NCBI GenBank assembly: GCA_964352985.1
Contig: CAYGUK010000005.1
Location: 125 to 64,124 of the forward strand
DNA length: 64,000 nucleotides
Origin: an uncultured Legionellales bacterium
Lineage (GTDB): Bacteria; Pseudomonadota; Gammaproteobacteria; JAHCLG01
Reading direction: 5' to 3'
The position numbers and the translations under genes are program-made. This document shows, in pieces, positions 9,671-43,521 of this stretch (the stretch's first letter is position 1; each line of letters starts with the position of its first letter). The notes under the pieces were generated by a model that searched no databases, was not told where the DNA came from, and saw only the letters and a program-made list of their open reading frames with translations.

Positions 9671-10261
9671 GTGATTATCATGTCATTCTGGAGCTGGGTT
9701 TTTATAATATATGTAGCTGGATTATTTTATTTCAGCTATAAATCTATTTCTTCATATATAACGTGTAGAGATAATGAAAAAGTTATTAACTACATAAAGT
9801 TTTATTTAATTTTCAAACCGTTATTATGGCCATATTTTTTGTTTTTGATGACCAATCCACTTAAGATAATCTCTCAACTATTTTTTAGACACTATGGTGT
9901 TGGTGAGCATGGTTTAAATTGTGGCACAAGAGGTTTACGTTATTTTTTAAATGATATCTTTCATGGTAAGAAGCGACACATTAGTAAGAATTATAATATT
10001 GAATTTTTTGAAAGACTCAATAATATTGAAATTAATAATAAAAACAATAGTCTCCTGGAAATTCTTAATAGTAAATATTGTGAACTGATTTACCACATAA
10101 TCAATAATAATAAAGTTGCAATGAGAATCTATTGTTACGAAGATCCAACAGAGTATCGAAAACTTGAAGACTTCACACGATATGAACTTGATGATTTGGC
10201 AATTGTTAGCTGGCAAGCTTTTATCAAAGAAATAGCTGAAATAAATGACAAAGTGGGGTGA
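9671..10261 (+). CDS. Hypothetical membrane protein. Its last codons run into the transposon terminal repeat, so its 3' end was altered by the Tn3-family insertion.
   Basis: 196-aa ORF whose stop TGA (10259-10261) lies inside the 38-bp inverted repeat. The undisrupted frame would continue about 9 codons into the sequence at 28368 onward. Confidence 0.4.
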   Translation: MIIMSFWSWVFIIYVAGLFYFSYKSISSYITCRDNEKVINYIKFYLIFKPLLWPYFLFLMTNPLKIISQLFFRHYGVGEHGLNCGTRGLRYFLNDIFHGKKRHISKNYNIEFFERLNNIEINNKNNSLLEILNSKYCELIYHIINNNKVAMRIYCYEDPTEYRKLEDFTRYELDDLAIVSWQAFIKEIAEINDKVG

Positions 10262-10292
10262 ATTGACATAAGCGGCGGGATCTTTCATTCGT
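10255..10292. repeat. Left terminal inverted repeat of the Tn3-family transposon (38 bp, begins GGGG).
   Basis: GGGG-initiated 38-mer. The tnpA stop codon abuts its inner end, as in many Tn3-family elements. Confidence 0.75.
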
Positions 10293-13200
10293 TATGATAA
10301 GTTATTGATATTTAGTGACAATATTTTTGCTATATCAAAGAATGATTCATTGGCAGCCTTCCGTTTGAAGTCAAATTCACCATGCAAATTGACATGCGCC
10401 CAGGATAATACCGAACCTTCTTTGATTAATGAAATCATTTCATTTCTTTCTTTTTCATTAGAGCAGTTAGTTAAGAGCTGTGATAAATATAAATAATTCC
10501 ACAACACAATACTATTTTGAATAAGCACTTTACACGCAACAGCAATATTTTGCTCATGTTGTTCGGCTTGTCTAAATTCACTATTGTTTGCATAAAAAAT
10601 AGCTTTAGCGAATTTATTAGATGATTCAACACGATTTAATTGTTTCTCAATTCGTTGTCGTAATTGCACATCATCATAATAAGTTAGTATAAATAATGAT
10701 TTTATAATTCGTCCAAATTCCTTTAATGCCTTATATAATGGATTGTCTTTAGCATAAGAGCTTAAACGTTTAAATAATTGTGAAGCGCTAGCCTTATTTA
10801 ATTTTATCGTGGCAATAAATCTTAAAATATCTTCCCAATGATTAATAATTAAATGTTGTCTAATTGGTCTTGAAGGAATTATTTGATAACCACGATTTTG
10901 ATAATATTTTTTAGAGTGAAATGAATATATTTTTTGGCTCGAAATATTTTTAATTCTTGGCGCAAAAGTTGTCTCAAAAAGATGTGTGGCACCAAAGATC
11001 AATTCTGTATAGCCATGTGTATCGGTTGAATGAATATCAATTTTTGGTGAATTAATATTATTCAGACCATCAAGGACATAAGCTGCTTCTCGCTCAGATG
11101 CACTCATCACATTATGATGAAACAACACTTGTCTATCATCAATAAACGTATAAATGCTAACACCTTTATCTTTTCCAAAGTATTTAAAAGAGTAGGTTGC
11201 TAATAAGCTTTCAACCGCAACACCCACTTTCCTACCATCACTCGAACTATGTCGTTTATTTTTTGAATTAGCAAAAATATGGGGTAGGGCTAGTTGATTG
11301 ATAAAGGCTCGAATGCTTTCATTTGCTGCTGAAATATTTTTTAATGAGAAAAACCAATTAATAGTATTACTCATCGTATTTTGATTAATACCCGATGATA
11401 TCTGAGCCATTTTAGTCACGCCAATATTACAACCCAGTCCTATAATACCGGCATAAAACAGCTGGCTTGATGGTTTAGACTTGGTATGTTTGACAGAATG
11501 GTGTGTAAAAGCACCCGTAAATTGTGCGACTTTATCAACTTCAGTCAACACTTGTAGTATTGGAATATAACCTACTTGGTTTAGGAAAGCTGAAATATGT
11601 TTCGTTTCTTTTTCATCAAGTGCTGGTGTTTTTATATGTAGAGCACCACGATCTTCAGCACTGATAGTAAAATGGGGATTTAAATTATTCAGTATTCGAT
11701 GATTAACCGTATGATATTTATCATCGAGCATTTCTTTAAGTTCATTTAATACCGTTTCAGGATCGGAGAATTGATTTAATTTTGCTAAGGTTAATAATTC
11801 ATCTCGTTCATTATTCCATGTGGCTGTATCAACTAAATACTCTTGAATTGCTAAATACCGATATGAATATATTAAGTTCAATTTGCCAGACTTAATATTA
11901 TCTGCAACAGCCATGAACAAAAGTATTTTGTATAAAGATACTCTAAAGTTATTGTGGTTATCGATTAAAGCTTCACGTTCATCGTCATTCAAAAAATCTT
12001 GAGGAGCACTAGCATTAATGTTGCCATCTTTCTGTTTATAGTGCTGTATTGCCTTTAATAAAGTAGGACATGAATTATCCTCATTAAAGACGAGCACTTT
12101 CAAAATCTCTGCAACACGAGCTTGTAATTTTCTAGAGAGCTTTTCTAAGTGATCAAAATAATCTTTATCTTTAGCCAAATTATCCAGTGATTGTTCTAGC
12201 ATGACAGTTTTTTTCTTTTCTTTAGCATCTTGTTTATTTTCATGCTCGCTTAATAACTCTGCTATTCGATTTACTTTACCACTATCCGTTAAGACAGTTG
12301 AATGCGTTACTTCAGTTATGGCATCTATCAGAGAGCGATAATTTTTGTTGCTTGTAGTGACATGCTTAATCGCTTTGCGGCGCTTAAAGCGTGTTAATCC
12401 ATCATTTTCGCGCAATTTACTGATCGCTGCATTGATAGCAGTTCTGACTGAACGTAAAAATATATCAACAAAGTTGTCTTGTCTCATATAATATTGATGT
12501 TGTAGGAAAGCGGCAAGATAAAGATAACGTTTACGATCATCATTGAATTGTTTTAACTGAGATAGTTTCGCCTTTTTTACCCAAGTTGCATAATACTCTG
12601 ATGATTGTGGTGTCAGTGACAATGCATTTATCAGTGGCCTTAGTGGTATGGTTAGCTCACTTAATGATCGGAATGTTTTAATACTATTGTGAATAGTTTT
12701 AGGTTGTAAAGATTGATTAATCACTTTATATCGGGATAAAGTTGTTTGATGCTGATGATTCTTAGTAACAAGAAGGGCATCGAGCACTATTTTTTGATTA
12801 TCTTTTAAGTGACTATCAATAGTATCAAGCGATCGTTTTTCATGATCATAATAATAGTGTGAAATCAATTCAGCTAAGGTATTATAACTTGGGATCTCAA
12901 TGTTATGATGATGTAATTGATGCAACACATCAAAAAAAATTGCTTTTGGCTCGATCACTTGTTGAACTTTCAACGCTATTTCTTTTTCAACCCAGTTTTT
13001 TTCTTGCTGAAAGGATTTACAGTTAAAGAGTGTTAATATTTTGCCACGATGTTTTTTTGGTGTGGTATTTTTATAGTTCCCTAAATCGACACGATAATGT
13101 GGGATGTTGAGTAATTTACTCGCATAGTCAATATCCTCTAGGCGAAATTTTTTAATTGTGAAAAAACGTCTACTTGCTTTAAAGTAAGCGTACTGCAATA

Positions 13201-13357
13201 AAAATCCGACTTTATTCGTTGCGCCGCGTAGTTTTTTTAATTGTTGTGATAATGGTTTATCGATAGCAAAAGCTAGGGCTTTTGTCTCTGCTGATAAAGT
13301 CGGTGGCGCATCAAATTCAATTTGTTCATTATCATCTAAAATAGTTAATCGTGTCAT
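10292..13357 (-). CDS. tnpA: Tn3-family transposase (DDE).
   Basis: 1021 aa. The C-terminal region contains 'HSTDTHGYTELIFGATHLFETTFAPRIKN', the hallmark Tn3-family TnpA motif. The size is typical. Confidence 0.85.
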   Translation of the reverse strand: MTRLTILDDNEQIEFDAPPTLSAETKALAFAIDKPLSQQLKKLRGATNKVGFLLQYAYFKASRRFFTIKKFRLEDIDYASKLLNIPHYRVDLGNYKNTTPKKHRGKILTLFNCKSFQQEKNWVEKEIALKVQQVIEPKAIFFDVLHQLHHHNIEIPSYNTLAELISHYYYDHEKRSLDTIDSHLKDNQKIVLDALLVTKNHQHQTTLSRYKVINQSLQPKTIHNSIKTFRSLSELTIPLRPLINALSLTPQSSEYYATWVKKAKLSQLKQFNDDRKRYLYLAAFLQHQYYMRQDNFVDIFLRSVRTAINAAISKLRENDGLTRFKRRKAIKHVTTSNKNYRSLIDAITEVTHSTVLTDSGKVNRIAELLSEHENKQDAKEKKKTVMLEQSLDNLAKDKDYFDHLEKLSRKLQARVAEILKVLVFNEDNSCPTLLKAIQHYKQKDGNINASAPQDFLNDDEREALIDNHNNFRVSLYKILLFMAVADNIKSGKLNLIYSYRYLAIQEYLVDTATWNNERDELLTLAKLNQFSDPETVLNELKEMLDDKYHTVNHRILNNLNPHFTISAEDRGALHIKTPALDEKETKHISAFLNQVGYIPILQVLTEVDKVAQFTGAFTHHSVKHTKSKPSSQLFYAGIIGLGCNIGVTKMAQISSGINQNTMSNTINWFFSLKNISAANESIRAFINQLALPHIFANSKNKRHSSSDGRKVGVAVESLLATYSFKYFGKDKGVSIYTFIDDRQVLFHHNVMSASEREAAYVLDGLNNINSPKIDIHSTDTHGYTELIFGATHLFETTFAPRIKNISSQKIYSFHSKKYYQNRGYQIIPSRPIRQHLIINHWEDILRFIATIKLNKASASQLFKRLSSYAKDNPLYKALKEFGRIIKSLFILTYYDDVQLRQRIEKQLNRVESSNKFAKAIFYANNSEFRQAEQHEQNIAVACKVLIQNSIVLWNYLYLSQLLTNCSNEKERNEMISLIKEGSVLSWAHVNLHGEFDFKRKAANESFFDIAKILSLNINNLS

Positions 13358-14592
13358 TCTTCTAAAGCCTTTATTTTTCGTAATTTTGTTAATGATAATG
13401 ATTGAGTCGCATTATGACGATCGGTTTGTGCAATGTGACGATAATGCATGGTAGTACCAATATCGCTATGGCCTGCATTTTCTTGCGCAACTTTTAACGG
13501 TGCACCTGAATCTAATAAGAAGGTTACATAGCTATGACGTAACCAATGGGCTGAGGCTTGTCTTAGCTTAGATGCGCGTCGTGGTTGCTCGACATCAAAT
13601 TGGGTAGCACCTAAATTAAATGCCCATTTAATTATTTGGTCAATGCGACGAGTGCTGATAGGCTGTTTCATATTTTGCATTGGAATAAGCGGTGTCCTTT
13701 CTCTAAATTTTGGTTCAGCGGAGGGTAACCCAGTAAACCGCCTAAAATCAATTAAAGCACTTAATAAATCATCAGGGACTGGAATTTCTCTTAGTTTTTT
13801 ACCTTTGCCAGTCACTCTTAAAAACCATTTATCTTCACGCTGTATAAAATGTCCCATACGATGAGTGGCTGCTTCATTAATGCGAAGCCCAGTATAGAGT
13901 AACAGTAAGATAATATAGCGTGCGCGAGCTACTTGAAAAGCGTGTGATTCATTTTTAATAGCATAATCATTTAATGCGTTTATTATTGCCTCTATTTCAT
14001 CTAATTCTAAGTAGCGATCGATTAATTGTGATTTTTGTTTGTTACGCCGTTTCCGTCGACGCTCAACCGCTAAGGGATTACCCGTTAAATAATTGGTTTG
14101 CACTAAATAATTAAAAAAAGAATCAAGAATTGTTGTGACTTTATTAATAGTCGTTTGGCTTAATGCTTTAGCAAACGGTCTCCATTTAGGGTTGGCAGTA
14201 TCATCTTGAAGTCGTCTAGCAGCTTTAGCACCGACCCAAACTAATTTAGGTTGAGGATTTTTTAAAAAATGTTGGTACTCCACTAAATCATTTCGCCTTA
14301 AACTGGATATATTTAAATGGGCTATGTGGATGCACCATAATAATAATCGCTCGATTTCCTTAGCATAAGATTTTAAGGTCAATGGTGAGTCACGAAACTC
14401 TAGTAAAAATGAAGAAATTGCATCAGCATCATTCTTTGCATCGATTAATGATTCACCAATGGCTTTGTTATAATCATCTTTAGCAAATGAAATGATTTGC
14501 TTGCCAATATCAAAGCTATCATCTGACATCAGAAATAATGGCTTTATTACTTCATGTTTCGGGCATGGGCCTTTGAGCATTATACAGTTCAT
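13354..14592 (-). CDS. Tyrosine recombinase transcribed just upstream of and overlapping tnpA. Probable TnpI-like cointegrate resolvase of the transposon.
   Basis: 'HWLRHSYVTFLLDSG...GHSDIGTTMHYRHI' (R/H-R-H-Y box). There is a 4-bp overlap with tnpA. The same operon layout occurs in Tn4430 tnpI-tnpA. Confidence 0.7.
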   Translation of the reverse strand: MNCIMLKGPCPKHEVIKPLFLMSDDSFDIGKQIISFAKDDYNKAIGESLIDAKNDADAISSFLLEFRDSPLTLKSYAKEIERLLLWCIHIAHLNISSLRRNDLVEYQHFLKNPQPKLVWVGAKAARRLQDDTANPKWRPFAKALSQTTINKVTTILDSFFNYLVQTNYLTGNPLAVERRRKRRNKQKSQLIDRYLELDEIEAIINALNDYAIKNESHAFQVARARYIILLLLYTGLRINEAATHRMGHFIQREDKWFLRVTGKGKKLREIPVPDDLLSALIDFRRFTGLPSAEPKFRERTPLIPMQNMKQPISTRRIDQIIKWAFNLGATQFDVEQPRRASKLRQASAHWLRHSYVTFLLDSGAPLKVAQENAGHSDIGTTMHYRHIAQTDRHNATQSLSLTKLRKIKALEE

Positions 14593-14712
14593 CCTTGATC
14601 ACTGGCAGTTTCACCCTACTCTAGCATAAATCTCTACTTCTTAGAATAATATTACTATGAAATATTAAGTTATAATCATAAATTCAACCTAGAAATTTAT
14701 TACCTTATTTAC

Positions 14713-14744
14713 TTGACCCTCTACTTAGGTTTAGGGTTTATACT
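14713..14744 (+). promoter_or_regulatory. MerR-type promoter: TTGACC, a 19-20 bp spacer containing the dyad ACCCT-N12-AGGGT, then TATACT.
   Basis: TTGACC at 14713-14718. Dyad ACCCT 14716-14720 and AGGGT 14733-14737. -10 TATACT at 14739-14744. The over-long spacer with an internal palindrome is the signature of MerR-family activated promoters. It could alternatively be a recombinase (res) subsite. Confidence 0.4.
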
Positions 14745-14804
14745 TTATATAAATAGAATGATGTTAATGTATAATGTGATTATACAAACTTGTGAGTTCA
14801 CGAT

Positions 14805-15233
14805 ATGAGTTTGATTACAATCGGTGAATTGGCCAAAGGCTCAGGCGCGAGCATTACTGCAATTCGCTATTATGAAAAAAATCAGTTAGTCATACCAGAC
14901 TCTCGCACTAAGGCTGGCTACAGATTATATACGAAAGATACCATCGTAAAATTGCGATTTATTAAAAATGCGCAGCAACTCGGTTTCACATTAGATGAAA
15001 TAGCAGAACTTACTCAACTACAGAATAATTCTTCCGCCACTTGCAAACAAATTAAAGCACGTGCCTATAAAAAACTACAATCTGTTGAACAAAAAATACA
15101 AGCATTAATGAAAATTAAAACGGCATTATCATCGTTATATCAACATTGTGATAGTAAAAAGGCAATTAATGGTTGCCCTATCTTAGAAGCACTCAACGAA
15201 AACGACATAATAGAGGAAAATGATGATAGTTGA
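14805..15233 (+). CDS. MerR-family metal-responsive transcriptional regulator (CueR/ZntR-like).
   Basis: N-terminal HTH 'IGELAKGSGASITAIRYYEK..L'. A coiled-coil dimerisation helix. C-terminal 'HCDSKKAINGCP' (Cys-x8-Cys metal-binding loop). Confidence 0.75.
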   Translation: MSLITIGELAKGSGASITAIRYYEKNQLVIPDSRTKAGYRLYTKDTIVKLRFIKNAQQLGFTLDEIAELTQLQNNSSATCKQIKARAYKKLQSVEQKIQALMKIKTALSSLYQHCDSKKAINGCPILEALNENDIIEENDDS

Positions 15234-15933
15234 ACTCATTTACGATCTAGCCTGTCCAAATGTAGATGCAACAAGAGAAAATCTCTTGAAGGCATTTGCC
15301 AAAACAGCACTCACGGCAAAATGGCAAGAATGGGATCGCAATGCGCCTGATTCACCCAATTATGTGCAACAATATGGCTCTCCAACACTATTAATCAATG
15401 GGCAAGATATTGTTGGTGAGAAGCCCACATCAAATAACTGCTGTCGAATTTATCAAGATGACCAGACAGGGAAGCTTACCCCTATTCCAACAATTGCTAC
15501 TATCAGTAAAAAACTAAATGAAGCTAATACAAAATCGAAAACTAAAAAACAACTCTTTTCATTAAAATCGTTAGTCGCTACTCTACCCAGCATTTTTATT
15601 GCCTTATTACCAAAACTCACTTGCCCATTATGCTGGCCTGCCTATGCTGGATTATTAAGTACCTTCGGAATTTCATTTACCAATTACACACCCTATTTAT
15701 TACCACTGATGATTGGTTTTTTATTAATCGCATTATTTACATTATATTATAAAGCCACCTCACGTCGTGGGTACTATCCATTATATTTAGGAATAGTTGC
15801 CGCGATTATTATTGTATTGGGTAAATTTGTTTTACATCTTAATGCCATTCTTTACCTTGGCATTTTAATTTTACTTCTCGCAAGTATTTGGAATAGTTTT
15901 CCTAAAAAGAAAACGAATTGTTGTCGTCAATAA
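15220..15933 (+). CDS. Fusion of a thioredoxin-like soluble domain with a C-terminal polytopic membrane domain carrying a CPLC motif. Possible metal/thiol-handling membrane protein.
   Basis: N-terminal 'LACPNV' motif. C-terminal hydrophobic segments with 'TCPLCWPAYAGLL' and a terminal 'NCCRQ'. It overlaps the merR-like stop, which suggests an operon. Confidence 0.35.
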   Translation: MMIVELIYDLACPNVDATRENLLKAFAKTALTAKWQEWDRNAPDSPNYVQQYGSPTLLINGQDIVGEKPTSNNCCRIYQDDQTGKLTPIPTIATISKKLNEANTKSKTKKQLFSLKSLVATLPSIFIALLPKLTCPLCWPAYAGLLSTFGISFTNYTPYLLPLMIGFLLIALFTLYYKATSRRGYYPLYLGIVAAIIIVLGKFVLHLNAILYLGILILLLASIWNSFPKKKTNCCRQ

Positions 15934-16001
15934 AGGTTGACTCTCAACGATGGTAGAGAGTTTACACTGTTAACTGTTGAATTAATATAGGAGTATTTAA
16001 C

Positions 16002-16262
16002 ATGAGCAAACGTAAAGTTGAAATATTTAGTGCTGGCTGTCCAGCTTGTCAAGAAACAATTGATCTTGTAAACAAAATTGCTTGCCCATCTTGTGAGATT
16101 TCAGTGTTAGACATGCATTCACAAGACGTTGCTAAACGGGCAAAATCCTTAGGTGTCCACAGTGTGCCCGCTGTTGTCATTGATGGCAAACTAGCAACCT
16201 GTTGTCAGGGAAAAGGTCCGAATGAACAAGCATTGCGTGATGCAGGGATTGGACAAGCTTAA
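16002..16262 (+). CDS. Small thioredoxin/glutaredoxin-fold redox protein.
   Basis: 86 aa. CPAC active-site motif near the N-terminus ('FSAGCPACQE'). An additional CPSC and a CC pair. Confidence 0.55.
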   Translation: MSKRKVEIFSAGCPACQETIDLVNKIACPSCEISVLDMHSQDVAKRAKSLGVHSVPAVVIDGKLATCCQGKGPNEQALRDAGIGQA

Positions 16263-16286
16263 TAACATTTATTATTCTTTCACATC

Positions 16287-16331
16287 ATGCTTTTATCATT
16301 TCATCAAATAATTATGATGATAAAAGCATGA
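16287..16331 (+). terminator. Stable hairpin (14-bp stem) directly downstream of the redox gene. Candidate intrinsic terminator.
   Basis: CATGCTTTTATCAT (16287-16300) pairs with ATGATAAAAGCATG (16318-16331). It lacks a clear U-tract. Confidence 0.35.
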
Positions 16332-16411
16332 ACATCACTGTGACTTGACTTTCACCTAAGGGTTAATGATTAACTCAAGATCATCTAATAATAATAATAA
16401 TAAGGATCGAT

Positions 16412-17089
16412 ATGCTGGGTTATGTAAAAAAAATATTAGCAAAAGTTCCCTTTATTGGTGCACTATTTCACGAGCAACCGAAACGAAAACTCATTCGAGA
16501 AACTATGCTTTTAGGTAGCATGGCGGCAATTAATAAATTAATTCACACCATCGATCCTGAATTTATGATGGGATCACATAAGAATATGCAAGAGATGGAT
16601 ATGAATTCCCATATAGACTATGGTATTGTTTATGGCAAAATGTTATTGATGATGTTTCTTGTGGCATATACTAGAAACATTGTTTACAGCATTGGCGAGC
16701 AGATTGTAGATCAGACTCAAGAAGATTTAGTATCAGATTGGCGCGATAATCCTATGAGTAAAGCCTTAGTTAAAACCATTCCCATTGTCGGTAATCTGGC
16801 TGATAAAGCATTAACGACAAGACACACAAAAACAGAAATAATATTTACCATGGCAGATGAAACAGCGATGTTAACCATTGGCACACTTACTATGGCATTA
16901 CCACTTATGCCACAGCAAGATGTTGCTCATTTCTTTTTACGTTATGTGCGCATGATGGGTGGCATGGGACTCGGTAGCGTTTCAGTTGAAACATTAAAAC
17001 AGTTCTTAACAAGCTGCCAGCCAACATTATTTACAGAGCATGACTCAACTCAGCGACAACGATTATTAACACAAGCCTCTAGCGTTTAA
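16412..17089 (+). CDS. Hypothetical protein (transposon cargo).
   Basis: 225-aa ORF with no recognisable motif. Confidence 0.35.
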   Translation: MLGYVKKILAKVPFIGALFHEQPKRKLIRETMLLGSMAAINKLIHTIDPEFMMGSHKNMQEMDMNSHIDYGIVYGKMLLMMFLVAYTRNIVYSIGEQIVDQTQEDLVSDWRDNPMSKALVKTIPIVGNLADKALTTRHTKTEIIFTMADETAMLTIGTLTMALPLMPQQDVAHFFLRYVRMMGGMGLGSVSVETLKQFLTSCQPTLFTEHDSTQRQRLLTQASSV

Positions 17090-20189: not shown

Positions 20190-20198
20190 TATTATCCC

Positions 20199-21680
20199 TT
20201 AATGTGAATGAGTTTCATCTTTTATCACATGGATCATCGTCAATTCGTAATGATCATTAGCGCAATGTTTCATTACAAAATGAATGTTATCGCCAACGTT
20301 AACACGCTTGAGATCGACCTTGTTAGCAACCGTAAACGTCATCGTCATCGCCGGCATATTGATCGCTTTAATTGGCTCATGATCTAAGGTGATGGTGCGA
20401 TTTTCACGATTTATTTTTGTCACCTTCCCCATTCCGATTAACTCTATGGGCTTTGTTGATGATTTTTGATGTTGGTCGCTATTCATTCTTTTAAGACTTG
20501 CTAAAGTATTCGCTTCTGAGTCAATTAAAAATTGTGCGCTGGTCACAACTTTATCACCCGCTTTTAGTCCACGAGTGATCTGATAATAATGACCCGATTC
20601 AATACCAATAGTGACTGATTGTGTTGTAAATTTTCCATCGCCTAATGCAATAATCACGCGATCACCGTCACCTGTTCTTATTAATGCTGATGTTGGGATC
20701 CCTATTGTATTATGAATTGGTTTACCCAAAATGGTAATATTTGCAAACATATTAGGTTTGAGGCTTAAGTCAGGATTTGGAAAAACTAAACGGACTTTTA
20801 AACTGCGTGTTTTCCTATCAAGTGTTGGGTATATAAAATCGACTTTACCCGCCCAGACTTTTCCAGGATAGGCATCTAAACTTGCTTTTGCATCATCGCC
20901 AACGTTAAACCATGTTGCAAGGCGTTCAAAAACATCGGCTATAATCCAAATATGGGAAAGATTTTCAATTGACATTATTTCTTTATCAGGGGTCACATAC
21001 ATGCCTTCACGAATGGATAGCTTAGCAATTATGCCGTCTGTTTTTGCATAGATGTTAACAAGTTGATCCGCGCGATTATTTTTTTTCACGAGATTAATCT
21101 GATTAAGTGACATCCCTAGTGCTTGCAATTTTTGTTTTGCGCCATCAATAATAATTTTATTTCTACCACTTAAGGCTAGGAGATATTCTTCTTGAGCGTT
21201 GATAATTTCTGGTGAATAAATAGCATAAAGTAATTGTCCTTTTTTGATGTATTCACCGGTTGTTTTAACATTTAATTGTTTGATCCAGCCTGATAATAAA
21301 CTGTGGACATGGAAAATATTGTTTTCGTCAACGCTAACGTAACCTACTGTGTTGATTAGACGAGGCAAGTCCATCATTTTAACCGTTGAAATTTTCACAC
21401 CAATGTTATTAACGACAGTGGGAGAGATTTTTATTGATGAACCCTGTTCATCAGTTAGTGGGTTCTCATAGACGGGAACCAGATCCATGCCCATCGGTGA
21501 TTTACCTGGTTTATCCCGTCGATAATTGGGATCCATTGGTGCAACCCAATATTTAATTTTCTTTTTTATCGTTGCTGATGGCGTATTGTTTTGAGTTGGT
21601 TGATTGAAAGTGTATTGGATCCACATGCCTAGCAAGACTGCAAAAATAATAATTAACAAAATTAAGAGCTTTTTTTTCAT
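20199..21680 (-). CDS. Membrane fusion protein (CusB-like) with a C-terminal CusF-like metallochaperone domain.
   Basis: 493 aa. N-terminal TM, then a biotinyl-lipoyl/beta-barrel MFP region. The C-terminal ~90 aa contains 'INMPAMTMTFTV' (CusF-type Met-x-Met Cu/Ag site) and ends His-rich. Confidence 0.75.
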   Translation of the reverse strand: MKKKLLILLIIIFAVLLGMWIQYTFNQPTQNNTPSATIKKKIKYWVAPMDPNYRRDKPGKSPMGMDLVPVYENPLTDEQGSSIKISPTVVNNIGVKISTVKMMDLPRLINTVGYVSVDENNIFHVHSLLSGWIKQLNVKTTGEYIKKGQLLYAIYSPEIINAQEEYLLALSGRNKIIIDGAKQKLQALGMSLNQINLVKKNNRADQLVNIYAKTDGIIAKLSIREGMYVTPDKEIMSIENLSHIWIIADVFERLATWFNVGDDAKASLDAYPGKVWAGKVDFIYPTLDRKTRSLKVRLVFPNPDLSLKPNMFANITILGKPIHNTIGIPTSALIRTGDGDRVIIALGDGKFTTQSVTIGIESGHYYQITRGLKAGDKVVTSAQFLIDSEANTLASLKRMNSDQHQKSSTKPIELIGMGKVTKINRENRTITLDHEPIKAINMPAMTMTFTVANKVDLKRVNVGDNIHFVMKHCANDHYELTMIHVIKDETHSH

Positions 21681-21838
21681 TCCTTTGTCCTTTACTAGGC
21701 GATATCTAGTTTGATCCTCGTTAAATTAAACAAAATCAGTCATTATGTATTTGATAATATCATAGTAATTAACTAATATTTAAAGATGTAGATAATTTAA
21801 GCACCGAATATATTTAGATAAAATTATTAACGCCCACC

Positions 21839-21858
21839 CATAAGTACGCACACTTATG
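21839..21858. promoter_or_regulatory. Palindrome CATAAGT-ACGCAC-ACTTATG in the intergenic region upstream of the cusB-cusA-like operon. Candidate operator.
   Basis: 7-bp arms are exact inverted copies. It lies about 180 bp upstream of the cusB-like start (21680) in the minus-strand promoter region. Confidence 0.3.
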
Positions 21859-21921
21859 TTTTATACCCTACCTCTCACAGAGCAGATCCTTGAACTGTTT
21901 TGTTAAAGTAACAAATCAAAT

Positions 21922-22518
21922 CTAAGCATTTAATTCTTGATACGCTTTTTTGATCACAGCAAAGGATGCTTTAATGCCAAGGAGTCCAATAATCAGTGCC
22001 ACAATCGTATCAGGCCACGTTTGATGAGTAATTGTGATTGTTGCGCCTGAAAATAACACAAGCAGATTGATAATTGCATCATTTCGGCTACACAACCAAA
22101 CAGATAACATATTACTATCGCCTTTGCGAAAATAATATAATAGATAGGCGACAAACAGATTAACAAATAGTGCTAATAATGCTACACACATCATGAGGAT
22201 CCCATTGGGAGAGTTAAATATCGACCGTCCAAAAATAACTAAAATAATAACCAAAATACCGTAACTCCCCATTACGATCCCTTTTGCCATTGCAATTCGC
22301 GATCGCCAATGCGGATGATACTTTAATGCAATAAGACTTGTGCCATAATTTCCTGCATCGCCTAGAAAATCCATTGCATCAGCAAAAACTGCTATGGAGC
22401 CTGCAAACCAACTGACGATAATTTCAATAATAAACATTATCAAGTTTAGCAATAAGGCAATCCATAAAACACGCCAATACTTCACTTCAACTGTTTCACC
22501 ATTACAACAATCAGTCAT
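21922..22518 (-). CDS. Cation diffusion facilitator (CzcD-like) protein, short form comprising only the transmembrane domain.
   Basis: 198 aa with 5-6 TM helices. The 'FADAMDFLGDAG' motif is typical of CDF TM2. There is no cytoplasmic C-terminal domain. Confidence 0.55.
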   Translation of the reverse strand: MTDCCNGETVEVKYWRVLWIALLLNLIMFIIEIIVSWFAGSIAVFADAMDFLGDAGNYGTSLIALKYHPHWRSRIAMAKGIVMGSYGILVIILVIFGRSIFNSPNGILMMCVALLALFVNLFVAYLLYYFRKGDSNMLSVWLCSRNDAIINLLVLFSGATITITHQTWPDTIVALIIGLLGIKASFAVIKKAYQELNA

Positions 22519-25500
22519 TATTATCCTTATTTTTTATCGTCATTTTTTTATGTCGTTTGTTATGCGTTAGATAATACAAGCAAGGTAAAACAAACAACGT
22601 GAGTAATGTTGATGAAATTATTCCGCCTATAACGACAGTTGCCAATGGGCGTTGTACTTCTGCACCCGTACCCGTGGATATTGCCATCGGAATAAAACCA
22701 AGCGATGCAACGAGTGCTGTCATTAATACTGGGCGTAATCGTTGTAGCGCACCTTGAAAGACAGCCTCTTTGATAGGGACATCTTGCTGAACAAGATTTT
22801 TGATAAAGGTTATAATCACAAGGCCATTTAATACTGCGACACCGGATAATGCGATAAAGCCCACACCTGCTGAAATTGATAACGGAATACCACGCAACAA
22901 CAGTGCAAATACGCCACCTGTTAACGCCAAGGGAACACCGGTAAAAACGATGATACTATCGAGCACACTACTCAATGACATGAACAGTAGTACAAAAATT
23001 AATATTAATACAATGGGGACAACAATCATTAATCGTTTTGTTGCAGTCGCTAACTGTTCAAATTGTCCACCCCAGGTGATCCAATAGCCACTCGGTAGTG
23101 ATAACAATTTATCAATTTTGACTTGTGCTGCATCAACAAACGATCGCAAATCTCTGCCTCTTACATTCGCAGTCACTACGATTCGACGTTTACCATTTTC
23201 TCGACTAATTTGATTGGGGCCAGCTTTTACGGTGAATGTTGCGATTTCATTAAGTGGAATGAAATGTCGATTACCATCGTCATTAAGTGGTAAGTCAATG
23301 TATATTTTTCTTAATATATTTTTATCTTTTCTCGCTTTGTCTGATAAACGAACAGTCAAATCAAAACGCCTGTCGCCTTGATAAATTTTACCCACTTCTC
23401 TGCCACCGAGTGCTGTTGCTATGGTATTTTGAACTTGTGACATGGTTAAACCATAACGCGCTAATAGCTGGCGATCGACATGAATGGTTATTGTCGGTAA
23501 TCCGGTTACCTGCTCTACTTTGACATCAGCAGATCCTTTGATTTGTTTTAATATTGCGGCTACTTTATTAGCATTTTCAAGTAATACTTTCATATCATCA
23601 CCAAATATTTTAACCGCAACATCACTTCTAACACCAGAAATCAATTCATTAAATCGCATCTGGATCGGTTGAGTGAATTCATAATTATTACCCGGTAATT
23701 GCTTTAATGCGGTTTGTAGTTGATGGATGAGTTCTAATTTTGAAAGTTTGGGATTTGCCCACTGACTTCTTGGTTTTAAAATCACAAAGGTATCAGCCAC
23801 ATTCGGTGGCATTGGATCGGTAGCCACTTCAGCGGTGCCAATTTTCGAGAACACATGGCTCACTTCAGGAAATTTTAACAACCTTTTTTCTACAAGTTCT
23901 TGCATTTTTACTGATTGCGTTAGGCTGGTCGATGGCGTTCTCATGGCATGAAGGGCAATATCACCTTCATCCAAACTTGGAACAAATTCACCACCCATCG
24001 TTGATGCAACCAACGCTGCAATAATTACAATAACAATGGCAATAATTAAACTTATCCAAGGTGATTTCAAACTCAAACGTAGGCTAGGTTTGTAAATCTT
24101 TTGACAACTTCGAACAATGAGGTTGGGTTTTTCTGTTATTTTTCCTGTTAAAAATATCCCAATCGCGGCAGGTACAAAGGTCAGGGATAATACAAGTGCC
24201 GAGAGCAAGGCTAGAATAACCGTTTGCGCCATTGGTATAAACATTTTTCCTTCTACACCGCTTAACGTTAGGATTGGAATATAGACAATGGTAATAATTA
24301 AAACACCAAATAAGCTAGGCTTAATGACTTCCTGACTTGCTGATAAGGTAATACTGAGTCTTTCTTTTAATGGTAATGATAAACCATGGGATTGTATTCC
24401 TAACTGTTTAATACAATTTTCAACAATTATCACTGCGCCATCGACGATTAAGCCAAAATCCAATGCGCCCATACTCATTAGATTGGCACTGATTTTATAA
24501 TGCACCATCCCTGTAATTGTCATCAGCATTGACAGTGGAATAACAGCAGCGGTGACTAAAGCCGCACGAATATTCCCTAGAAATAAAAATAAAATGACAC
24601 AAACTAATAATGCGCCTTCTAGTAAATTATTTTTAACTGTATTTATTGTTGCATTTACTAATTGCGTGCGATTATAAACAGGGGTTGCAATAACACCTTT
24701 TGGCAATGTTTTATTAATCTCTTTTAAACGTTTTGCAATTCTTTTTGCAACGACGCGGCTATTATCGCCCATTAACATTGAAACCGTTCCAATGACTGCC
24801 TCATGTCCTGCACTTGTTCCCGCGCCACTGCGAAGCGCATGACTAATGGTGACATTTCCTAAATCAGAGATACGAAGACTGACACCGCGATGTGAACGAA
24901 CAACAACATTACCTATTGCTTGCTCTGTTTTTAATTGCCCCGGTATACGAATTAGAAATTGCTCACCGTGTTGCTCAATATAACCAGCCCCCATATTATC
25001 ATTATTCTTTTCTAATGCTTGCTCAATATCATGTAATGTTACGCCATATTGGATCAATTTTTTAAGATCAGGGGTAACTTGATATTGTTTTTCGTAACCA
25101 CCAATAGCATTTACCTCTGCAACTCCTGGAAGGTTTCGCAATTGTGGCCGAATAATCCAATCTTGGATCGTGCGTAATTGCATCGGTGTATACGGTTTCC
25201 CTTTTTCATTTATCGCGTCGGGCTTTGCTGTTACCGTATACATGAAAATCTCACCTAATCCCGTTGAGATTGGCCCAAGCTGTGGTTCAATGCCATCAGG
25301 CAATTGGCTTTTTATTGATTGCAATCGTTCAGTGATTAATTGCCTAGCAAAATAGATATTGGTTCCATCTTTGAATACAACGGTAACTTGCGATAACCCA
25401 TAGCGCGAAAGCGAACGTGTATAATCTAATTTAGGCAAACCACTCATTGCCACTTCAATAGGATAGGTGATCCGTTGCTCCACTTCATAAGGGGTTAAAC

Positions 25501-25666
25501 CGGTTGCTTCTGTATTAATCTGTACTTGCACATTAGTGATATCGGGGACAGCATCGATAGGGAGTCGTGTGAAATTATAAATCCCTAAAACGATAATCCC
25601 AAGGATAGCTAATAAAATAAGCCAACGTTGTTTAAGAGAAAATTGTAAAATCCGTTCTATCATCAT
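22511..25666 (-). CDS. Heavy-metal efflux RND transporter, CzcA/CusA family, pump 2.
   Basis: 1051 aa. 'DFGLIVDGAVIIVENC' motif. 12 TM plus large periplasmic loops. Confidence 0.85.
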   Translation of the reverse strand: MMIERILQFSLKQRWLILLAILGIIVLGIYNFTRLPIDAVPDITNVQVQINTEATGLTPYEVEQRITYPIEVAMSGLPKLDYTRSLSRYGLSQVTVVFKDGTNIYFARQLITERLQSIKSQLPDGIEPQLGPISTGLGEIFMYTVTAKPDAINEKGKPYTPMQLRTIQDWIIRPQLRNLPGVAEVNAIGGYEKQYQVTPDLKKLIQYGVTLHDIEQALEKNNDNMGAGYIEQHGEQFLIRIPGQLKTEQAIGNVVVRSHRGVSLRISDLGNVTISHALRSGAGTSAGHEAVIGTVSMLMGDNSRVVAKRIAKRLKEINKTLPKGVIATPVYNRTQLVNATINTVKNNLLEGALLVCVILFLFLGNIRAALVTAAVIPLSMLMTITGMVHYKISANLMSMGALDFGLIVDGAVIIVENCIKQLGIQSHGLSLPLKERLSITLSASQEVIKPSLFGVLIITIVYIPILTLSGVEGKMFIPMAQTVILALLSALVLSLTFVPAAIGIFLTGKITEKPNLIVRSCQKIYKPSLRLSLKSPWISLIIAIVIVIIAALVASTMGGEFVPSLDEGDIALHAMRTPSTSLTQSVKMQELVEKRLLKFPEVSHVFSKIGTAEVATDPMPPNVADTFVILKPRSQWANPKLSKLELIHQLQTALKQLPGNNYEFTQPIQMRFNELISGVRSDVAVKIFGDDMKVLLENANKVAAILKQIKGSADVKVEQVTGLPTITIHVDRQLLARYGLTMSQVQNTIATALGGREVGKIYQGDRRFDLTVRLSDKARKDKNILRKIYIDLPLNDDGNRHFIPLNEIATFTVKAGPNQISRENGKRRIVVTANVRGRDLRSFVDAAQVKIDKLLSLPSGYWITWGGQFEQLATATKRLMIVVPIVLILIFVLLFMSLSSVLDSIIVFTGVPLALTGGVFALLLRGIPLSISAGVGFIALSGVAVLNGLVIITFIKNLVQQDVPIKEAVFQGALQRLRPVLMTALVASLGFIPMAISTGTGAEVQRPLATVVIGGIISSTLLTLFVLPCLYYLTHNKRHKKMTIKNKDNND

Positions 25667-25677
25667 AGTTCCTATGA

Positions 25678-26697
25678 TTAATGGGAATGCCCAGCACTAC
25701 TTTTTTCAAGCTCTGCTTTTAAAATAAAACTATTTTTTGACACGTAGCGCATTCCGCTTTTTAACCCCGCTTTTATCTGAACAAATTTATCATCACCAAC
25801 ACCCAACGTGACATGTTCTGCTTCAAAATAATTAGCTTTATTTTCGACAAATACCACTTTTTCACCATCGACCTCTTGAACAGCATCACGGGTGACCGCA
25901 ACGGGAACATTTTTAGCATCAACAACAACCGTTGCATCAACATAGAGTCCAGGGATCCATTGATTATGAGGATTAGCGAGCGAAGCTCGAGCAATGATAC
26001 TTTGGGTATGTTCATTACCAATTGGTGATATATAATGAATAACACTCTTAATCTTTTTCTTGTTTTTACCTTCGGCAGTTACATAAATCCTATCACCTTT
26101 AGCAACACGATGGGCGTCTTTTCGATAAATTGAAAGCTCAACCCAGACTGTCGATAGATCGGCTAATTCATAAATAGGTTGCTCAGGTTTCACTAATTTT
26201 CCAACATTCACATGTTGTTGGATTAATGTCCCCGCTAAAGGTGTTTTAACAGAATAGTTTTGCAAACTTTCATTACTCTCTATAACGGCAAGCACATCGC
26301 CTTTTTTAACATAGTCACCCAACTGAAAAGCAAGTGATTTTACAACACCTGTAAATCGAGGATAAATGGCGACTTGTTTATTTTGCTCAGGTACTATTTT
26401 TCCATAAACTGGTAATGTTTGTTCAATGAGTTGAGATTTTATTGTGGACACTTCGATATGATTTGATTTTAATGCATCAGGTGATAAATAAATAATGTTG
26501 TTTTCTTCAGCGTGTTCATCATGTGTATCGTCAGATTGGTTCTTATGCTCTTTAGTCGTTTCATTAGAGTGCGTTTTATGTTGTTCTTCATTTTGAAGAT
26601 GATGCTCATGATCGTTATCGTGACTTCCACTAGCAATAGCGATACCCATTGTTAGCATCAACGCAATTATAAAACTAACAACAACAGATTTGTTCAT
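25678..26697 (-). CDS. Membrane fusion protein (CzcB-like) with a His-rich N-terminal metal-binding region.
   Basis: 339 aa. A signal/TM segment is followed by 'SGSHDNDHEHHLQNEEQHKTH...HDEHAEEN', then MFP beta-barrel motifs. Confidence 0.75.
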   Translation of the reverse strand: MNKSVVVSFIIALMLTMGIAIASGSHDNDHEHHLQNEEQHKTHSNETTKEHKNQSDDTHDEHAEENNIIYLSPDALKSNHIEVSTIKSQLIEQTLPVYGKIVPEQNKQVAIYPRFTGVVKSLAFQLGDYVKKGDVLAVIESNESLQNYSVKTPLAGTLIQQHVNVGKLVKPEQPIYELADLSTVWVELSIYRKDAHRVAKGDRIYVTAEGKNKKKIKSVIHYISPIGNEHTQSIIARASLANPHNQWIPGLYVDATVVVDAKNVPVAVTRDAVQEVDGEKVVFVENKANYFEAEHVTLGVGDDKFVQIKAGLKSGMRYVSKNSFILKAELEKSSAGHSH

Positions 26698-26706
26698 ATG
26701 CTTCCC

Positions 26707-27957
26707 CTAGTGTGATCCTTTTCCAAGCAAACCATTTATTTCAACTAATGTCTTATCAAAATTAGCGTGCGCTTGCCAATACTCTCTTTCTGCGTTTAAT
26801 AGCGTTGCTTGTGCGTTAGCTAACGTAACATAAGGATATTTCCCTTGAAAGTAACCTTGCTTAGCCATCGTTACTGCTTGTTGAGCTTTTGGTAATATTT
26901 GATGGTAAATTAAACGCGCTTGAAATTGAGCTGATTGAGCTATCTGAAATAAAGTCACGAGTTGACTTTTTAATTCAATTAAAACTTGTCGTTGATTAAA
27001 TAAGGCCGCATTATACTCTGCTAATCGACTAACAACATTACCCTGATTAAGATCATAGATCGGTATTGGCAGTGAAAAGTCGGCAACTAAACTGTTATCA
27101 TGGGTATCAGCAAAATGTCTCGTGCCAATTGCCACCGTAAGATCGGGCCAGATTTGTTTTTTTGCTAAAATAATCCGTTTGTAAGCAACATCTGACTCAA
27201 TAACTTGAGCTTTCCAAGTGGGACTACTCATCAGTGAGCGATATAACGTTGAATATGACGCAAGATAATGAGGTAGCCCCTTATCAATGACGTTATGATA
27301 TTTTAATTTTTTGCGCCCCATTAACAGCGTTAATCGTCTCCATGCGGCATGCAATTTTTGATAGGCAATCGTTCTTGCTATTTTTGCTTGTGATAATTGA
27401 ATTTGAGCGGTTAACAAATCAAGAGGCGATCCGCTACCGGCGTGTAGTTTTCTTTTTAAGGTAATAACAATGCTCCCATTGATACGGACTAATTTATCCG
27501 TTGAATGTAGCCAGTTTTGAGCATAAAGAACATTCACATATCGCTCACCTAAAAGAATATATAATTTTGATTGTGCCGTTAATAACGTTGCTCGGCTCAA
27601 TCGAACCAAGCCATGTTGAACATTTTGGTTGGCAATACGTTTACCACCTAAAGGGATCGGCTGTGCTATTTGCACCGTGGTCTCTGCCGATTCAAAATTT
27701 TGATATTCTCCACTACCCGCTATATTTTCAGCTGATACACTGAGTGAAGGGTTTGGATAAGTGAGTGACTGGATTAGCTGCCCATTTGCTGAGCGAATAG
27801 AAGCATGAGCTGATTTTAGTAGCGGGCTATATCGTTTTGCAATTGACCAAGCACGATTAAAGGTAAACATCGAGCTTGCTTGAATAGTTGTCACAAAAAA
27901 ACACCAAGTTACTATCATTAAAAAACTGAGTAATCTTGGTGCTAATCTAATTTTCAT
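26707..27957 (-). CDS. Outer-membrane efflux factor (CzcC/CusC/TolC family). The start is probably the internal Met (MKIRLAP...), avoiding overlap with the ArsR gene.
   Basis: The signal peptide begins at 'MKIRLAPRLLSFLMIV'. Helical repeats are OMF-like. The ORF track extends to 28029, but that would overlap the arsR-like gene by 83 nt. Confidence 0.7.
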   Translation of the reverse strand: MKIRLAPRLLSFLMIVTWCFFVTTIQASSMFTFNRAWSIAKRYSPLLKSAHASIRSANGQLIQSLTYPNPSLSVSAENIAGSGEYQNFESAETTVQIAQPIPLGGKRIANQNVQHGLVRLSRATLLTAQSKLYILLGERYVNVLYAQNWLHSTDKLVRINGSIVITLKRKLHAGSGSPLDLLTAQIQLSQAKIARTIAYQKLHAAWRRLTLLMGRKKLKYHNVIDKGLPHYLASYSTLYRSLMSSPTWKAQVIESDVAYKRIILAKKQIWPDLTVAIGTRHFADTHDNSLVADFSLPIPIYDLNQGNVVSRLAEYNAALFNQRQVLIELKSQLVTLFQIAQSAQFQARLIYHQILPKAQQAVTMAKQGYFQGKYPYVTLANAQATLLNAEREYWQAHANFDKTLVEINGLLGKGSH

Positions 27958-28318
27958 TATTATTTTTTCCTTTATGTTTATCTTTGGTATGCGCAATAAC
28001 ATCCCGAATGATGCAGCGAGCACATTCATCTTTCACATGATAAAGTACACGTTTACCGTCACGAGTGGCATGAATTAAATTAGCTTCTCTTAATAGTTTT
28101 AAATGATGACTTATTAATGATTGTGAAAGCGTTTTCATTTTTGTCATGATGTCGCTGACAGAAAGAGACTGCTCAAGACATAACCACATAATTTTCAAGC
28201 GGTTTGGTTGGCTTAGCATACGAAATGTATTGGCAACTTTTTGAAAATATTGATCATCCATAGCATAGAGATTACTATCACAAGGTATTGATGTCAATTC
28301 ATATGAATAGATGTTCAT
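27947..28318 (-). CDS. ArsR/SmtB-family metalloregulatory repressor.
   Basis: 123 aa. 'LSQPNRLKIMWLC...LSVSDI...LSQSLISHHLKLLREANLI' is the winged-HTH signature. Additional Cys/His residues are present at the C-terminus. Confidence 0.75.
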   Translation of the reverse strand: MNIYSYELTSIPCDSNLYAMDDQYFQKVANTFRMLSQPNRLKIMWLCLEQSLSVSDIMTKMKTLSQSLISHHLKLLREANLIHATRDGKRVLYHVKDECARCIIRDVIAHTKDKHKGKNNNEN

Positions 28319-28329
28319 TAGTTAGAATA

Positions 28330-28367
28330 TCGAATGAAAGATCCCGCCGCTTATGTCGATCCACCCA
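28330..28367. repeat. Right terminal inverted repeat of the Tn3-family transposon.
   Basis: tCGAATGAAAGATCCCGCCGCTTATGTCGATCCACCCa is the reverse complement of the left repeat, with 4-5 mismatches near the tip. Confidence 0.7.
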
Positions 28368-28508
28368 AAGTGGCGAAAAAAATTGACCAAAAAAAGAGTT
28401 AATTAATTTATCGTAAAATGGTAATCCGGCTGGAATCCTGGTAAAACATAGTAAAATCATACATGGATCTGTAGTAGCTCAAATGCTCTCATATCATAAT
28501 TTTTCGCT

Positions 28509-29206: not shown

Positions 29207-29635
29207 CTATAAGCATTGTGTGATGAATTGATGTAGTTTTTCGCCAATAATCAACACAATATCTTTATTTAAATTTTTATAAGATACCCTACCGGTTTTA
29301 CCAGTATGAATAAAAAAGCCACCATCACCCGTATGCGCTTTATTATGCCTGACGCGATATCCTCTTTCTTTAAAACTTAGCCATAGTACTTCTTCAAAAG
29401 TTAGGGCATTAATTTTTCGAATGCAGGTGAAAAATTTTACAGGCGTTACCCTAAATACATTAGTATTTAGCAAACAAAGTGTTTTCCTCGCTTGCAACAA
29501 GCTCAGTTTGTGCGTTTTGTTTTTCACAATCAATATAACCCATAATTTAACTCTTATTGATGATATTAATCTCATTATTTTAATTTTATTTTTTTGATTT
29601 TTTTCAAAATACTGTAGAGACGGCTTGTTTGTCAT
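29207..29635 (-). CDS. Hypothetical protein. Weak Mrr-like 'TGDGG' motif.
   Basis: 142-aa ORF overlapping the helicase gene's 3' end by about 30 nt. 'GYRVRHNKAHTGDGGFFIHTGKTG'. Confidence 0.25.
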   Translation of the reverse strand: MTNKPSLQYFEKNQKNKIKIMRLISSIRVKLWVILIVKNKTHKLSLLQARKTLCLLNTNVFRVTPVKFFTCIRKINALTFEEVLWLSFKERGYRVRHNKAHTGDGGFFIHTGKTGRVSYKNLNKDIVLIIGEKLHQFITQCL

Positions 29636-31550: not shown

Positions 31551-31556
31551 TTTACG

Positions 31557-33491: not shown

Positions 33492-33547
33492 TGTCGTGTT
33501 ACCTCATTGACTTATTAACAATTAATGCGAATATTTTAAAAACAATT

Positions 33548-34302: not shown

Positions 34303-34313
34303 TACAATACTCC

Positions 34314-34682: not shown

Positions 34683-34693
34683 CCCAGCAGCTC

Positions 34694-35377: not shown

Positions 35378-35390
35378 ACTTTTTTTTCTC

Positions 35391-36659: not shown

Positions 36660-36673
36660 TCCATCCTACCTTG

Positions 36674-39581: not shown

Positions 39582-39583
39582 TA

Positions 39584-42824: not shown

Positions 42825-42826
42825 TA

Positions 42827-43168: not shown

Positions 43169-43191
43169 ATAAAAATCTCCAATTTAATCGT

Positions 43192-43518: not shown

Positions 43519-43521
43519 TGA

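Follow-up and report, generated by a model that had tools for sequence, protein, structure and literature searches.

A probable 18-kb Tn3-family unit transposon with a tyrosine recombinase and two putative heavy-metal efflux systems in an uncultured Legionellales bacterium

The layout of Tn4430 and Tn5401 was found in three of the 190 Tn3-family transposons surveyed in 2020 (PMC7157771). In Tn4430, from Bacillus thuringiensis, the resolution site res, the gene of a tyrosine recombinase and the transposase gene tnpA are colinear, and the end of tnpA lies beside one of the terminal inverted repeats (IRs) (PMC7157771). Here we analyze a stretch of 64,000 nucleotides (hereafter the window) from an uncultured Legionellales bacterium (contig CAYGUK010000005.1, positions 125 to 64,124), in which positions 10256-28366 very probably form a single Tn3-family unit transposon of 18,111 bp. 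It would have inserted in one piece, with duplication of the target sequence AAAGTG, into the 3' end of an orphan open reading frame (ORF) on a conjugative element that bears a type IV secretion system (T4SS). As in Tn4430, the transposition module is colinear, with all parts on the minus strand: a res-like site (14636-14663) is followed by the recombinase gene (14592-13354) and then by tnpA (13357-10292), whose end lies beside one IR. The remaining 13.7 kb or so, between the res-like site and the cargo-side IR, is occupied by cargo with the appearance of metal-resistance genes.

The transposase, TnpA, is full length. It matches the Pfam domains DDE_Tnp_Tn3 (PF01526, E-value 9.6e-119) and DUF4158 (PF13700, 2.9e-19), and scores 694.5 bits on the NCBIfam model NF033527, for which the equivalog cut-off is 500. 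Nearly its whole length, residues 40-998, can be aligned with the structurally solved TnpA of Tn4430 (PDB 7QD4). In this alignment the catalytic residues are D707 (in SSSDG), D779 (in STDTHG) and E911 (in LNRVES), and all three are invariant across 17 relatives. The initial annotation of the region, made from the sequence alone, had proposed that a Tn3-family unit transposon some 18 kb long lies here intact between IRs and a target duplication, and our analysis supports the core of this reading. A genome scan with the TnpA alignment yielded 80 loci (designated below by L and a number where they have to be told apart), mostly in metagenome-assembled genomes (MAGs) of Coxiellaceae, Legionellales, other Gammaproteobacteria, Halieaceae, Paracaedibacter and Rickettsiales. 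Identity to TnpA within this clade was 43 to 69% for full-length relatives and up to 78% for fragments truncated by the end of a contig. The exact protein was found on one further contig, from the Logan collection, with the same left flank; the nearest other full-length transposase is 69% identical.

An unbiased repeat search gave, as the top inverted pair of the region, 10256-10314 and 28308-28366 (59 nt, 81% complementary). When the tnpA-proximal and cargo-side IRs (IRL and IRR; Table 1) are placed in register, 34 of their 37 positions are identical. Only two exact copies of their 27-nt core, GACATAAGCGGCGGGATCTTTCATTCG, are present in the window, one on the plus strand (10265-10291) and one on the minus strand (28331-28357), and none was encountered in 100 shuffles, even with three mismatches permitted. 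The inner end of IRL abuts the stop codon of tnpA. The left boundary (10250-10292) reads AAAGT GGGGTGAATTGACATAAGCGGCGGGATCTTTCATTCG, and the right boundary (28330-28372) reads TCGAATGAAAGATCCCGCCGCTTATGTCGATCCACCC AAAGTG. Inverted repeats with an identical 27-bp interior had been reported by the initial annotation, and these are real; their description as 38-bp repeats initiated by GGGG holds in part only, as the four Gs are present at the left end (10255-10258), whereas the right end consists of CCC (28364-28366) followed by A. With three Cs at that end, the right IR as first drawn (to 28367) and the right direct repeat (from 28367) overlapped by one base. The termini of the clade are GGGT, with an IR consensus of (N)GGGTG-N4-ACATAAGCG[GC]CG..ATCT whose register corresponds to window position 10256, and symmetric GGGT...ACCC termini give the span of 10256-28366. 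No second res site, internal IR relic or other Tn3-family end was found within the window.

Immediately outside these ends, the pentamer AAAGT is present on both sides (10250-10254 and 28367-28371), at the positions first reported. The chance that five to six flanking bases match in DNA of about 31% guanine plus cytosine (GC) is approximately 0.0006 to 0.002 by our own calculation from base composition. With symmetric termini, the direct repeat is one base longer, AAAGTG, and a reading of 5 bp requires one of the IRs to be longer by one base. Besides the window, four relatives were informative as to the length of the duplication. With their termini placed in the family register, three have flanking repeats of 6 bp (CTATCA in L036, TGATTT in L037 and AATTAT in L042), and one has a repeat of 5 bp (AATTT in L011). 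On this comparison the duplication would most simply be 6 bp, AAAGTG, rather than the 5 bp proposed initially. A canonical duplication of AAAGT, with an IRL that begins with GGGG instead of GGG and a sixth matching base that is coincidental, appears unlikely to us: it would impose a one-base IR asymmetry on four independent elements (the window, L036, L037 and L042), a coincidence with a probability of about (1/4)^4, and the IRs of the clade begin with (N)GGGT and not with the GGGG of the classical family terminus. This last terminus is nevertheless one of the points that speak for 5 bp, together with the clean 5-bp repeat and symmetric ends of L011 and the fact that 5 bp is the usual Tn3-family value (PMC4337579). 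Either length is compatible with the family, since Tn3-derived TIME elements gave 5- or 6-bp duplications in AT-rich targets experimentally (PMC4133298). As a separate observation, no target duplication accompanies the complete-looking elements L005, L007, L009, L026, L027, L028, L048 and L051. In seven of these, one and the same base follows GGG on the outer side of either end (T/T or A/A); an exchange of flanks among copies and replicative transposition within one molecule are candidate explanations.

The insertion has cut the target ORF near its 3' end. Joining the flanks restored its reading frame, as the initial annotation had claimed: the interrupted ORF ends with ...DKVG*, and the joined one with ...EINDKVAKKIDQKKS (over a longer stretch, ...DKVAKKIDQKKS), the final nine codons and the stop being located at 28373-28402. 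By our own estimate, about half of random frames in such AT-rich DNA stay open for nine codons; because the gain is that short and the ORF is an orphan, its restoration argues only weakly for the insertion. In a search of 5.8 billion proteins, the restored 201-amino-acid (aa) protein matched only its own truncated form, and no uninterrupted allele is recorded there.

Next to tnpA, in the same direction and with a 4-nt overlap, lies the gene of the tyrosine recombinase, a component that went unmentioned as a resolution enzyme in the initial annotation, the core of which otherwise stands. The best PDB matches of this protein are XerC and XerD (E-value of about 1e-9), and the R, K, H-x-x-R, H and Y motifs are kept in 12 of 12 aligned relatives (56 to 79% identity). 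A recombinase of about 405 aa, identical to that of the window to the same extent, is found directly upstream of tnpA and in the same orientation in at least 12 relatives, its gene either abutting tnpA or overlapping it. A sister clade carries a recombinase that is about 30% identical and is encoded in divergent orientation. Located 71 bp upstream of the recombinase ATG is a 28-bp imperfect palindrome, and the same arrangement of arms (ATTTCATAGTA-N6-TTCTAAGAAGT) is present in 11 relatives, upstream of the recombinase gene or of an operon made up of a passenger and the recombinase. Its conservation, position and architecture suggest that this palindrome is the res core. Beyond it, the motif TTTATGGTAGAGTAGGG recurs in L002, L005, L017, L036 and L048; its first 11 nt resemble the left core arm in direct orientation, and the motif (14614-14631 in the window) could possibly be an accessory recombinase site, a -10 region or both. 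A scan of the res region with consensus promoters gave nothing above shuffled sequences.

By analogy with the family, TnpA would bind both IRs, of about 37 bp each, and carry out replicative (paste-and-copy) transposition via a cointegrate. This cointegrate would then be resolved by the 412-aa recombinase at the dif-like 11-6-11 core at 14636-14663, where the recombinase would probably also regulate its own expression.

Two observations were made on the region of the recombinase and the res-like site. In L005 (1181-2155) and L048 (8238-8549), a gene of the RhuM/Fic-DOC or ORF6N type, confirmed with Pfam, is interposed between the res core and the recombinase gene, and the sequence preceding the recombinase gene indicates, by its similarity, the same for L014, L029, L030, L036 and L051; in other Tn3-family transposons, this position is held by toxin-antitoxin genes (PMC7157771). 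In addition, an independent assembly of the source run (L001, a Logan contig from run ERR3534985) stops about 150 nt into the recombinase gene, at approximately position 13500 of the window, and the recombinase/res region may be repeated or variable in that sample.

Table 1. Features of the transposon and of its insertion site, in window coordinates
Feature	Coordinates	Strand	Basis
Target ORF, orphan, with hydrophobic N-terminal stretch, cut near 3' end	9671-10261	+	Joined-flank translation
Left flanking direct repeat AAAGTG (AAAGT if 5 bp)	10250-10255	.	Identical to 28367-28372
IRL, tnpA-proximal terminal inverted repeat, GGGTGAATTGACATAAGCGGCGGGATCTTTCATTCG...	10256-10292	+	Repeat search, pairwise match, consensus register in relatives
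tnpA, Tn3-family DDE transposase, 1021 aa	10292-13357	-	Pfam, NCBIfam, alignments
Tyrosine recombinase, 412 aa, putative cointegrate resolvase	13354-14592	-	Pfam Phage_integrase, 6e-21
Conserved motif beyond core, ATTTATGCTAG + AGTAGGG	14614-14631	-	Recurrence in relatives; role predicted
Predicted res core, ATTTCATAGTA-atatta-TTCTAAGAAGT, 11-6-11 imperfect palindrome, 28 bp	14636-14663	-	Conserved in relatives; function predicted
Putative MerR-type promoter, TTGACC, 20-bp spacer with dyad ACCCT...AGGGT, TATACT, into merR operon	14713-14744	+	Read by eye
MerR-family metal-sensing regulator, 142 aa, Cys80, Cys115, Cys124	14805-15233	+	ZntR/MerR/CadR models, all under equivalog cut-offs
Thioredoxin-fold DF-family domain fused to MerC-like membrane domain, 237 aa	15220-15933	+	Domain profiles
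Small thioredoxin/glutaredoxin-like protein, 86 aa, CPAC motif	16002-16262	+	Domain profiles, motif
ORF, 225 aa, no family match in profile searches	16412-17089	+	
CusA-type HME-RND pump, 1036 aa	17079-20189	-	TIGR00914, 1233 bits
CusB-like adaptor, N-terminal HMBD, fused C-terminal CusF domain, 493 aa	20199-21680	-	Domain profiles
Short CDF transporter, 198 aa, membrane domain only	21922-22518	-	Domain profiles
CzcA/ZneA-type HME-RND pump, 1051 aa	22511-25666	-	TIGR00914, 1577 bits
CzcB/IhpB-like periplasmic adaptor, 339 aa	25678-26697	-	Domain profiles
Outer-membrane factor, about 440 aa, start uncertain	26707-28029	-	Pfam OEP; IhpA-like, under cut-off
ArsR/SmtB metalloregulator, ORF as listed 123 aa	27947-28318	-	Domain profiles
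Putative arsR-czc promoter, TTGACA-17-TAATCT, with overlapping dyads ATGAACATCTATTCAT and ATTCATATGAAT	28269-28318	-	Read by eye
IRR, cargo-side terminal inverted repeat, reverse complement GGGTGGATCGACATAAGCGGCGGGATCTTTCATTCGA	28330-28366	-	Repeat search, pairwise match
Right flanking direct repeat AAAGTG	28367-28372	.	Identical to left copy

The cargo was typed by profile and pairwise comparisons, by which all the components named in the initial annotation were found: Cus-like and Czc-like pumps, a cation diffusion facilitator (CDF), a MerR regulator accompanied by thiol-redox genes, and an ArsR regulator. Both pumps belong to the heavy-metal efflux branch of the resistance-nodulation-division superfamily (HME-RND). 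The CusA-type pump scored 1306 bits to Escherichia coli CusA, as against 580 to ZneA, and carries AIGAMVDGAIVMIEN as the motif of its fourth transmembrane segment (TM4). For the second pump, the best PDB match was ZneA (679 bits). The DFG...DGA...VEN motif is present in its TM4, and the adaptor and OEP genes lie upstream in one operon, as in systems of the CzcCBA type. The outer-membrane factor, adaptor, CzcA-type pump and short CDF would accordingly form an ArsR-controlled operon directed at divalent cations, and the CusB-CusF fusion and CusA would form a system of the copper/silver type. The DF/MerC-like fusion, the thioredoxin-like protein and the ORF without family match would be transcribed divergently, under the control of the MerR regulator. 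The promoter proposed for this last operon has a 20-bp spacer, and MerR-family promoters are known for spacers of 19-20 bp. The layout of the putative promoter and operator at 28269-28318 places the start of arsR at Met20 (28261), which is probably the true one; the start of the outer-membrane factor is uncertain because its ORF overlaps arsR.

The most informative relative with regard to the cargo is L042, an 11.8-kb element in a Gammaproteobacteria MAG (JAYPYM010000013.1, 1263-13104), whose TnpA is 43% and recombinase 64% identical to those of the window. It carries an outer-membrane factor (OMF), a membrane fusion protein (MFP), a CzcA (62% identical), a PEMT/ICMT-like methyltransferase and a short CDF (40% identical, and at the equivalent relative position), then res, recombinase and tnpA; the OMF-MFP-CzcA-CDF series has the same order and orientation in both elements, beside res. 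Metal-efflux cargo is thus recurrent in the clade. The Cus and MerR modules were in none of the MAG relatives compared, and the window element has the appearance of a czc+CDF transposon with these two modules in addition. The initial annotation had considered the payload unusually large. This could not be upheld, as L042 carries the syntenic czc and CDF genes and 18 kb is inside the size range of the Tn3 family, in which Tn21 is about 20 kb and Tn4651 56 kb long. In Xanthomonas, mobile insertion cassettes of the Tn3 family likewise have RND pumps among their passengers (PMC4337579), which, with the recurrence of metal cargo in the clade, makes the payload of the window element not exceptional.

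These comparisons raise the question of whether the element is a mosaic, which would be compatible with its being a unit transposon today. An IRL-tnpA-recombinase-res half may have recombined at res with a relative that contributed res, cargo and IRR, the whole moving afterwards as a unit; alternatively, the Cus and MerR modules may have joined an ancestral czc+CDF transposon at a later time. Hybrid Tn3-family elements are well known to arise by exchange at res, and a composite origin would account for IRs that differ in their outer 9 nt and are identical over the inner 27, for a GC content of 33.9% in the transposition module compared to 37.5% in the cargo, and for the presence in L042 of the czc+CDF part only, in the same order and orientation beside res. 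However, searches of PLSDB, metagenomes and proteins revealed no element that could have donated one half or the other, and the identities to L042 of CzcA and the CDF fit long co-divergence equally well. Taken together, the two forms of this scenario have a minor share of the probability.

A number of observations weigh against the interpretation of the whole span as one unit transposon. The three mismatches between IRL and IRR all fall among the outermost nine positions. Where both IRs of a relative are located on a single contig, a flanking duplication is mostly missing. The contrast in GC content is mild (36.7% for the element, 31-32% for its flanks and 36% for the T4SS genes). Within the cargo, the CDF is short, and the Cus-like pair has no outer-membrane factor gene of its own, the only one of the element (26707-28029) being placed beside the czc-like genes. 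Finally, neither an empty-site allele nor a second copy of the exact element was present in the collections searched, so that the case for mobility depends on anatomy; a megablast of the whole element against PLSDB revealed weak RND similarity only, and the 27-nt IR core had no exact match in JGI metagenome contigs. The single known copy, the lack of an empty site and the many relatives without duplications could be taken to mean that the element is a fossil, that is, a set of immobile remnants whose matching flanks are accidental or came along with a larger segment that had been duplicated. We regard this as very improbable, given that neither transposition gene is truncated or has lost catalytic residues, that both ends retain an intact IR core, that a flank match of 5-6 bp has a probability of about 1e-3 by chance, and that the flanks join into a single continuous reading frame. 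A single-piece insertion of a complete unit transposon therefore remains our interpretation, with high confidence.

Judged by its sequence, the element belongs to a distinct, sparsely described clade, in which Tn4430-like resolution by a tyrosine recombinase of a separate kind is predicted. In the smallest relatives (L002/L007, 4.5 kb), nothing is present other than IR, recombinase, tnpA and IR. We tentatively propose that this is a formally undescribed clade of the Tn3 family, widespread in low-GC Gammaproteobacteria, Legionellales/Coxiellaceae and Paracaedibacter-type MAGs, with four hallmarks: GGGT termini, predominantly 6-bp duplications, a long-standing association with czc+CDF cargo, and a fourth type of resolution system. 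The latter would consist of a XerC/D-like recombinase of about 410 aa, distinct from TnpI and from TnpS/T, that acts on a dif-like 11-6-11 core inside its own promoter region. All these points being taken jointly, the proposal is somewhat more doubtful than probable. Two metagenomic mini-elements with clade IRs (L094 445-704, 260 bp, and L095 1954-2304, 351 bp) are too short for a transposase gene of about 3 kb; they look like TIME or miniature inverted-repeat transposable element (MITE) derivatives of the clade, and neither has a flanking direct repeat.

The surroundings of the transposon contain a conjugation block at 29604-44490, on the minus strand, which encodes a UvrD-like helicase, a VirD4-type coupling protein, VirB10, VirB9, VirB6, VirB4 and VirB11. 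This VirB4 shares no more than 35% identity with any plasmid protein of PLSDB, which makes the backbone a very divergent conjugative plasmid or integrative and conjugative element. No relaxase was identified among the window ORFs scanned, and no tRNA gene that could serve as an integration target is present in the window. Two further tyrosine recombinase genes (7433-8668 and 55911-56984) are unrelated to that of the transposon and may serve the integration or multimer resolution of the carrier. Adjacent genes for a YcaO protein (372 aa) and a TfuA-domain protein (429 aa) are located at 47391-49795, a pairing typical of thioamide-forming peptide/protein modification systems. A few kilobases from the transposon, positions 4167-5639 encode a protein with ATPase_2/AAA_14 domains that also matches REase-ARP faintly; in L004 (5287-6393), a protein with ATPase_2/AAA_14 domains adjoins a related TnpA, and this may be a coincidence.

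The element would thus constitute a complete and probably active vehicle by which two systems of heavy-metal efflux, together with their regulators, can pass from one replicon to another, on a carrier conjugative element that can move between cells, in a poorly sampled lineage of low GC content. Together with its relatives, it adds many predicted examples of resolution by a tyrosine recombinase to a family in which three of 190 were known in the 2020 survey (PMC7157771), and it supplies a concrete candidate res site as well as a clade whose duplications appear to be 6 bp long as a rule. Current views on the working of Tn3-family elements are unaffected. For the specialist, the points of interest are a large XerC/D-like putative resolvase that is paired with a dif-like site, termini of the GGGT type, and a duplication of apparently 6 bp.

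Compared with named systems, the element resembles Tn4430 in layout more than in sequence. The core of the Tn4430 site is an inverted pair of recombinase-binding motifs (PMC2847244), and the core predicted in the window would be built likewise, with a probable direct-repeat motif beside it. The dimensions differ, the window having an 11-6-11 core with one direct-repeat-like arm, whereas the Tn4430 core, IRS, is made of two 14-bp motifs with a 4-bp spacer (PMC2847244), with a 6-bp stagger and with DR1 and DR2 as accessory motifs. The two transposases are 26% identical. The recombinase of the window has 412 aa, as compared to 284 for TnpI of Tn4430, and the two align with 22% identity, 28% gaps and large insertions (pairwise E-value 1e-12), so that the likeness to TnpI is only that of tyrosine recombinases in general. 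The GGGT termini, the apparent 6-bp duplication, the low-GC Gram-negative host and the 13.7 kb of cargo also set the window element apart from Tn4430, which has no passenger genes. Membership of the Tn4430 subgroup was considered and, on pairwise identities, rejected: the layout matches, but the identity of TnpA, compared to 43 to 69% within its own clade and 44% with ISVsa19, is too low, and the recombinase is not an orthologue of TnpI. A TnpS/TnpT system of the Tn4651 type, in which tnpS and tnpT are divergently transcribed and the rst site lies between them, was likewise set aside: the divergent neighbour of the recombinase gene encodes a MerR-family regulator, no further unassigned gene that could be a helper adjoins it, and minimal relatives have only recombinase and tnpA.

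Among named transposases in PLSDB, the closest is that of ISVsa19, from an Aliivibrio salmonicida plasmid, with 44% full-length identity, compared to 57 to 69% for full-length metagenomic relatives. ISVsa19 is insertion-sequence-like, without resolvase and passengers (PMC4337579), unlike the window element. Within the Legionellales, plasmids of Legionella (for example that of L. israelensis, NZ_CP038274) also have a tyrosine recombinase gene followed colinearly by tnpA; in these elements, however, TnpA is 39% identical, and the recombinase is a short TnpI-like protein of 291 aa, 27% identical over the catalytic domain only. As regards function, a parallel is offered by the Tn21/Tn501-type elements, which are unit transposons of the same family with MerR-regulated metal-resistance passengers; they differ from the window element in having the serine resolvase TnpR, and mer operons rather than HME-RND pumps. 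The layout of Tn21 itself is described in PMC7157771.

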